The notes below the pieces were generated by a model. That model was not told the DNA's origin and ran no database searches. It saw only the letters and a program-made list of their open reading frames with translations. Positions 38,822 through 39,145 of a DNA stretch of 64,000 bases are shown here, piece after piece (the stretch's first letter is position 1; every line of letters starts with the position of its first letter). The DNA is taken from positions 2,400,001 through 2,464,000 of the forward strand of contig CM000154.2 of NCBI GenBank assembly GCA_000004695.1, in the 5' to 3' direction. Source of the DNA: Dictyostelium discoideum (Eukaryota). The position numbers and the translations under genes are program-made.

Positions 38822-39145
38822 TTACCAAGTCATAGATTTAGCCTCCATAGATGAAACCTCTTCTTGAAGAATACCAATAGTTTTTAAATTATTTGTTCTG
38901 CCAAGTCTGTTAGAATTTTTTATATAATTTTTAGCTTTTTCTACGGTAATATTCAATTTTTTTGAGAGAGTGATCGCTGTTATATTCTGTAAACCAACTT
39001 CTGCAATGTATTCGGCAAGTATAATTTTTTGTTGCTCTGAGAGTTCCTCTAGTTTAGGTTTTGGAACAGAAAGTGGAGCTAAAGTAACACCAGAGTCGTT
39101 AGCCTCTTTTTTAATATCATTTATTATTTTGTCAAGTGGGTCCAT
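38822..39145 (-). CDS. Small (107 aa) helix-turn-helix protein with a CENP-B N-terminal / pipsqueak (pogo-transposase N-terminus)-like HTH
   Basis: The first real ATG is at 39145 (MDPLDK...); the track start at 39208 lies in a poly-F low-complexity region. The sequence KPKLEELSEQQKIILAEYIAEVGLQNITAITLSKKLNITVEKAKNYIKNSNRL fits the psq/CENP-B-N pattern, with some resemblance to sigma-70 region 4. Confidence 0.5.
   Translation of the reverse strand: MDPLDKIINDIKKEANDSGVTLAPLSVPKPKLEELSEQQKIILAEYIAEVGLQNITAITLSKKLNITVEKAKNYIKNSNRLGRTNNLKTIGILQEEVSSMEAKSMTW

Follow-up and report, generated by a model that had tools for sequence, protein, structure and literature searches.

Identification of a 107-codon open reading frame of Dictyostelium discoideum as the mating-type gene matA, and the ancestry of its DNA-binding domain

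We analyzed a stretch of 64,000 nucleotides of Dictyostelium discoideum (assembly GCA_000004695.1, contig CM000154.2, positions 2,400,001 to 2,464,000 of the forward strand), hereafter the window, whose reverse strand carries a short, intronless open reading frame (ORF) at positions 38822-39145. We identify this ORF, with a probability of about 97%, as the coding sequence of matA (DDB_G0289165), the type-I gene of the D. discoideum mating-type (mat) locus on chromosome 5. It comprises 107 codons and a TAA stop, at which its translation of 107 amino acids ends: MDPLDKIINDIKKEANDSGVTLAPLSVPKPKLEELSEQQKIILAEYIAEVGLQNITAITLSKKLNITVEKAKNYIKNSNRLGRTNNLKTIGILQEEVSSMEAKSMTW. The start codon is the ATG at 39145; a longer, TTG-initiated ORF adds merely a poly-T/poly-F tract. 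Coordinates and translation had been given correctly in a preliminary description of the locus, which took the product for a stand-alone helix-turn-helix (HTH) mini-protein of the CENP-B-N/pipsqueak (psq) type, either a domesticated transposase N-terminus or a relic, and missed its actual identity as the mating-type I determinant MatA (5NR5).

The identification follows from several lines of evidence. A sequence search of the PDB matched the translation to chain A of entry 5NR5, "MatA protein", with 100% identity over 107 of 107 residues (E 1.7e-63); the second match was 5NR6, "MatB protein" (E 1.2e-31), and no further match was meaningful. In a collection of 5.8 billion proteins the same sequence is named DDB_G0289165 (D. 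discoideum AX4) and, in UniRef, "MatA protein". Moreover, the window is 99.5-99.9% identical around matA to a 5.29-Mb chromosome record of a second D. discoideum assembly, GCA_054883475.1, where a 107-amino-acid gene is also called at matA. The base composition of the window is also that of Dictyostelium, with a G+C content of about 20%, long A/T runs, and coding tracts of poly-N and poly-S, and the mating-type locus of D. discoideum sits on chromosome 5 (PMC6369745). No evidence contradicts the identification, and its weak points touch the mechanism only. The matA gene is thus already known and well characterized: it has been in the literature since 2010, and its structure and mechanism since 2017 (PMC5580921). 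The alignment of the window with the chromosome record has a single break, at 43039-43208, where about 100 bp are unaligned and a 67-bp piece matches in reverse orientation; this is probably a low-complexity or palindromic indel between strains or assemblies.

An exhaustive phmmer search of 1.84 billion representative proteins returned only two relatives of MatA, the D. discoideum protein MatB (59% identity) and an 823-amino-acid protein of Dictyostelium citrinum, the rest being spurious; rejected in this way were two TPR-repeat proteins (P0004 and P0007), whose multi-repeat matches fell on the low-complexity C-terminal tail. MatB (5NR6) is of the same length and architecture as MatA, with 57-59% identity, and differs from it in the C-terminal tail, which carries the functional specificity (PMC5580921). 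In the 5.8-billion-protein collection, the only match besides MatA itself is a homologue of 108 amino acids and 73% identity in Dictyostelium dimigraforme. By blastn, positions 9921-10307 of the D. dimigraforme locus (L002) align with window positions 39224-38839 at 81.6% identity, so that the similarity extends past the ATG at 39145. Even among 1.84 billion proteins, those resembling MatA come solely from species closely related to D. discoideum. The D. citrinum match belongs to a pair of hypothetical proteins of 823 and 840 amino acids (KAN0021641.1 and KAN0024493.1) that lack a counterpart in the window; we examined the shorter, with which the longer clusters at 90% identity. Residues 1-73 of the 823-amino-acid protein share 55% identity with MatA and are similar to MatB; the remainder is unrelated, Pfam-less, and unmatched in the window. 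The gene model probably fuses a matB-like gene to a neighboring gene of the type-II locus. The type-I mat locus, according to work from 2010, reportedly contains matA alone. The window contains just one MatA/B-like sequence, which is consistent with matA being the sole gene of the MatA/B type there, and nothing in it matches the D. citrinum fusion protein beyond the MatB-like residues.

The reverse-strand coding sequence can be divided according to the parts of the protein. The N-terminal tail (residues 1-35; 39041..39145) is mostly disordered, and nuclear magnetic resonance (NMR) shows residual helix around residues 4-14; it includes a basic arm adjoining the core (residues 29-35), where L32 and L35 show DNA-induced shifts (PMC5580921). 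It is followed by a homeodomain-like three-helix core (residues 36-80; 38906..39040), made up of helix 1 (36-50), helix 2 (56-64), and the recognition helix 3 (68-79), and by a flexible C-terminal tail (residues 81-107; 38825..38905), which diverges most when MatA and MatB are aligned with the D. dimigraforme homologue and to which published chimeras assign the MatA versus MatB specificity (PMC5580921). About 80 bp upstream of the ATG, on the same strand (39146..39224), still align with the D. dimigraforme locus and are presumed to be the 5′ untranslated region or the proximal promoter. An AlphaFold2 (AF2) model placed helices at residues 37-50, 57-64, and 68-83, in agreement with the NMR limits, along with a low-confidence helix at residues 3-17, and had a predicted local distance difference test score (pLDDT) below 50 for residues 79-107. 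As the model is of low confidence, the evidence on the fold rests mainly on the published structure.

What is known of the protein comes from a study combining NMR, electrophoretic mobility shift assays, the K72A/K76A mutant, chemical-shift mapping, tail-swap chimeras, and the selection of parasexual diploids (Hedgethorne et al., 2017, Sci Adv 3:e1602937; PMC5580921). In D. discoideum, matA specifies mating type I, matB together with matC type II, and matS type III, and the proteins MatA, MatB, MatC, and MatS are without recognizable sequence homology to known families (PMC5580921). MatA is a monomer with a folded, homeodomain-like core of about 45-50 residues between long, mostly disordered tails. 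It binds double-stranded DNA weakly and non-specifically, through the basic face of helix 3 formed by K72 and K76, and binding is abolished in the K72A/K76A mutant; the largest DNA-induced shift changes lie in helix 3 (E69, I75, K76, and N77) and before the core (L32 and L35) (PMC5580921). The chimeras showed that the C-terminal tail, and not the DNA-binding core, sets the mating specificity of MatA versus MatB, its type-II homologue, where MatA behavior means compatibility with type-II and type-III partners (PMC5580921). At the level of the organism, matA alone confers type-I mating behavior, and its deletion is sterile and homeotic (PMC5580921; PMC6369745). Cells null for matA fuse and form parasexual diploids, yet make no macrocysts (PMC5580921), and diploids hemizygous for matA (heterozygous with the null) grow like haploids, a homeotic loss of zygote identity (PMC5580921; PMC6369745). 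The view of the ORF as a stand-alone HTH mini-protein thus agrees with the three-helix, DNA-binding MatA of the NMR structure (PMC5580921), while that of a relic is contradicted by the loss-of-function and complementation phenotypes (PMC5580921; PMC6369745).

The authors of that study favor a divergent homeodomain; MatA and MatB were not confidently placed in a homeodomain tree, and an origin from another HTH, such as the archaeal HTH-10, was kept as a possibility (PMC5580921). By the AF2 model and the published structure, MatA has the three-helix fold, the DNA-contacting helix 3, and the N-terminal arm of a homeodomain (PMC5580921). We compared its sequence with those of MATalpha2, PBX1, and Antennapedia, all of them checked against database output before the comparison. 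In Smith-Waterman alignments evaluated against 2000 shuffles, the MatA core scored weakly with both MATalpha2 (z=3.6) and PBX1 (z=3.5). When MatA and MatB were threaded without gaps on the 60-residue homeodomain of Antennapedia, register +26 was the single best for both, with a score of 3 versus -24 or -21 for the next best register. In this register K29 and K31 fall on R3 and R5, I42 on L16, Y46 on F20, L52 on L26, Y74 on W48, I75 on F49, and N77 on N51, while N79 takes the place of R53. The helices of a homeodomain span residues 10-22, 28-37, and 42-58, and these textbook limits, when shifted by +26, land near the NMR limits of MatA. Register +26 has a z of about 2, 4-5% of shuffles reach its score, and for the D. 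dimigraforme protein a different register comes out best. A Pfam scan with a threshold of E<=10, used here throughout, gave no significant match of MatA to Homeodomain or Homeobox_KN, and a profile search of the PDB at the same threshold returned no homeodomain. With hhalign, a MatA/B profile matched a TALE homeodomain profile with a non-significant probability of 6.4%, in a comparison of low power because the target was a two-sequence profile. In the Foldseek search with the AF2 model, 5NR5 (E 2.5e-6) and 5NR6 (E 0.011) were the only matches below E 0.25, with Exd and PBX1 at E 0.65-1.4 and 24-28% identity; since confidence in the model is low, these rankings cannot separate classes of HTH.

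MatA shares with the homeodomain regulators of mating and zygote formation, namely MATalpha2/MATa1 of S. cerevisiae, HD1/HD2 of basidiomycetes, GSP1/GSM1 of Chlamydomonas, and proteins of the TALE class (PBX1/Exd), a three-helix fold, with helix 3 on the DNA and a basic N-terminal arm; in register +26, with its z of about 2, its core hydrophobic positions and the equivalent of N51 would line up with those of homeodomains without gaps. Like these mating regulators, it has flexible tails for partner specificity, and like the homeodomain mating/zygote regulators it takes part in a codominant control of the switch from haploid to diploid. Unlike these proteins, MatA gives no significant sequence or profile match, has a shorter helix 3 of 12 residues, and carries N79 where homeodomains have R53; its measured DNA binding is weak and non-specific, and its likely partners MatC and MatS show no homeodomain (PMC5580921).

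In the model proposed by the authors, MatA would be the transcription factor that controls type-I gamete genes in haploid type-I cells (PMC5580921). After fusion it would meet the MatC or MatS of the partner and, directly or indirectly via its C-terminal tail, would switch on the zygote (macrocyst) program and stop mitotic growth (PMC5580921). The weak points concern this mechanism. The DNA binding shown for MatA is weak and non-specific, and its contact with MatC or MatS is a putative one (PMC5580921). The AF2 model has a pLDDT of 52.7. Finally, the lack of a Pfam match, the Smith-Waterman z of 3.5-3.6, the threading z of about 2, and the hhalign probability of about 6% mean that true membership in the homeodomain family is not supported by the sequence statistics.

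A different origin would derive the HTH of MatA and MatB from a pogo/Tigger-like transposase, whose psq/CENP-B-N head was domesticated to regulate mating type, and not from a homeobox gene. We regard this origin as very improbable. The SCOP classification puts psq/CENP-B-N domains in the broad "homeodomain-like" fold superfamily, to which the NMR structure also assigns MatA, and MatA shares with those of CENP-B, Jerky, TIGD, S. pombe Abp1, and pogo/Tigger the architecture of a small tri-helical HTH. The motif noticed in the preliminary description does exist in a loose form: MatA reads K29-P-K31-L...L35-S-E-Q-Q-K40-I-I...G51...L60-S-K-K-L64-N-I66...Y74-I-K-N77, resembling the K-R-R-Q-L-T-F-R-E-K-S-R-I-I...F-N-I...I-L-K-N of CENP-B, and a common pattern K..L(S/T)..(E/Q)K..II ... 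(F/L)NI ... I.KN can be written. However, the two are shifted in register, and the resemblance does not rise above chance: the MatA core, against the same 2000 shuffles, gave z=1.5 with CENP-B N (residues 1-60, verified against 1HLV) and z=1.6 with the psq domain 2ELH, scores equalled by 9% of shuffles, and ungapped threading on CENP-B N found no preferred register. The one result in favor of this origin is that hhalign slightly prefers CENP-B/psq over TALE, with 27.5% versus 6.4% probability and an alignment of 49 columns over all three helices, both values being non-significant; the 27.5% is far under accepted thresholds and comes from thin profiles with an effective number of sequences (Neff) of about 1.5, against a two-sequence target, deepening of the CENP-B-N profile having yielded just three near-identical human-type sequences. 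Every other test was neutral or favored the homeodomain register.

Pfam contains the families CENP-B_N, HTH_psq, HTH_Tnp_Tc5, Homeodomain, and Sigma70_r4. We scanned full-length MatA and the cores of MatA, MatB, and the D. dimigraforme homologue, and found no family for full-length MatA or for the cores of MatA and MatB, and merely z-alpha (E 0.15) for the D. dimigraforme core; the full-length MatB and D. dimigraforme proteins had no family either. A profile search of the PDB with the MatA/B alignment found no match beyond MatA and MatB. The NCBIfam model S25e matched below threshold (E 0.0022, 18 bits versus a cutoff of 171) and was treated as generic HTH resemblance. The proposed membership in the CENP-B-N/psq family is thus left without a significant profile match, the outcome that the preliminary description itself had named as refuting it. 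The idea of a domesticated transposase fared no better, as the phmmer search found no protein in which a DDE or Tc5-type body shares a MatA-like head, that is, no recognizable transposase relative. MatA itself, unlike the pogo/Tigger proteins, lacks a second HTH as well as a DDE catalytic domain, and its gene is not flanked by terminal inverted repeats (TIRs). The absence of a catalytic domain and of flanking repeats had been noted before and was confirmed here: the TIR search around matA gave only overlapping tracts of A/T-rich, low-complexity sequence that are 71-81% complementary, and none of the ten largest ORFs of the window encodes a transposase.

A further reading would class MatA with the sigma-70 region-4-like, LuxR/GerE-like, or other prokaryote-type HTHs (for example the archaeal HTH_10), independent of homeodomains. 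We hold it to be highly improbable. For sigma-70 region 4, which the preliminary description had left open, and for LuxR/GerE, there was no profile match and no clearly best structural match to MatA. No match to a prokaryote-type HTH was significant or came from Pfam; such matches stem from the low-confidence AF2 model, and all tri-helical HTH units score alike at the length of MatA. The ungapped homeodomain register, with N77 as the equivalent of N51 and the basic N-terminal arm, favors the homeodomain-like reading. That the ORF could be a relic without function, or could have arisen by chance in AT-rich DNA between genes, is suggested by its short length, its lack of a Pfam domain, and its very few homologues, but we consider the probability of this negligible: a structure has been solved from the purified protein (5NR5), the mating phenotypes of deletion and complementation are clear (PMC5580921; PMC6369745), and protein identity amounts to 73% at the syntenic position in D. 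dimigraforme and 57-59% in MatB.

The gene matA belongs to the master switches of a system with three sexes and underlies the claim of an ancestral eukaryotic control of zygote formation by homeodomain-like proteins. Our additions are small: the narrow range of the relatives of MatA, the syntenic homologue in D. dimigraforme with its 73% identity, and the observation that sequence statistics cannot place the MatA/B domain in any specific HTH family. The deep ancestry of this HTH is a question already raised by the authors of the structure (PMC5580921). A core derived from a psq/CENP-B-N head or another non-homeobox HTH, and not from an ancestral homeobox gene, is in our estimate very unlikely; if true, it would undercut the published argument for homeodomain control of the haploid-to-diploid switch in the last eukaryotic common ancestor.

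Directly upstream of matA, on the reverse strand (39587-40889), is a gene that has two exons and encodes a 352-amino-acid protein with a signal-peptide-like N-terminus, a poly-Ser tract, and no Pfam family; its DNA is conserved in D. dimigraforme in blocks of 78.3% and 87.3% identity. Further along this upstream flank is an SDR gene (41551-42522, reverse strand). On the other flank there is a 4HBT thioesterase (36601-37281, reverse strand), and beyond it a small gene and then an FAD monooxygenase. In the 5.29-Mb chromosome record, too, matA lies between the 352-amino-acid and SDR genes on one side and the thioesterase and monooxygenase genes on the other. Both flanks are collinear with D. dimigraforme, whose matA homologue occupies the same place between the same neighbors. 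There, in the interval corresponding to window positions 39224-39584 (L002 5566-9921), extra DNA of about 4.3 kb separates the 352-amino-acid gene from the matA homologue, so that the region next to mat is structurally variable between species. The extra DNA carries broken pieces of a polyketide synthase, in the form of frameshifted ORFs with matches to ketoacyl-synt and Acyl_transf_1.

As for the rest of the window, scans for tRNA genes and Rfam families gave no matches. The ten largest ORFs encode class I and class II phosphodiesterases, a myosin I, a kinase, a Myb protein, an FAD monooxygenase, a GidA/MTO1 protein, a GRIP-domain protein, an arginase-family protein, and one Pfam-less product. 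The class I cyclic-nucleotide phosphodiesterase (4867-6558, forward strand), the myosin I with its TH1 and SH3 tail (10854-13922, forward strand), and the class II cAMP phosphodiesterase (14262-15536, reverse strand) lie within about 11 kb of each other (4867-15536) and are ordinary Dictyostelium genes.
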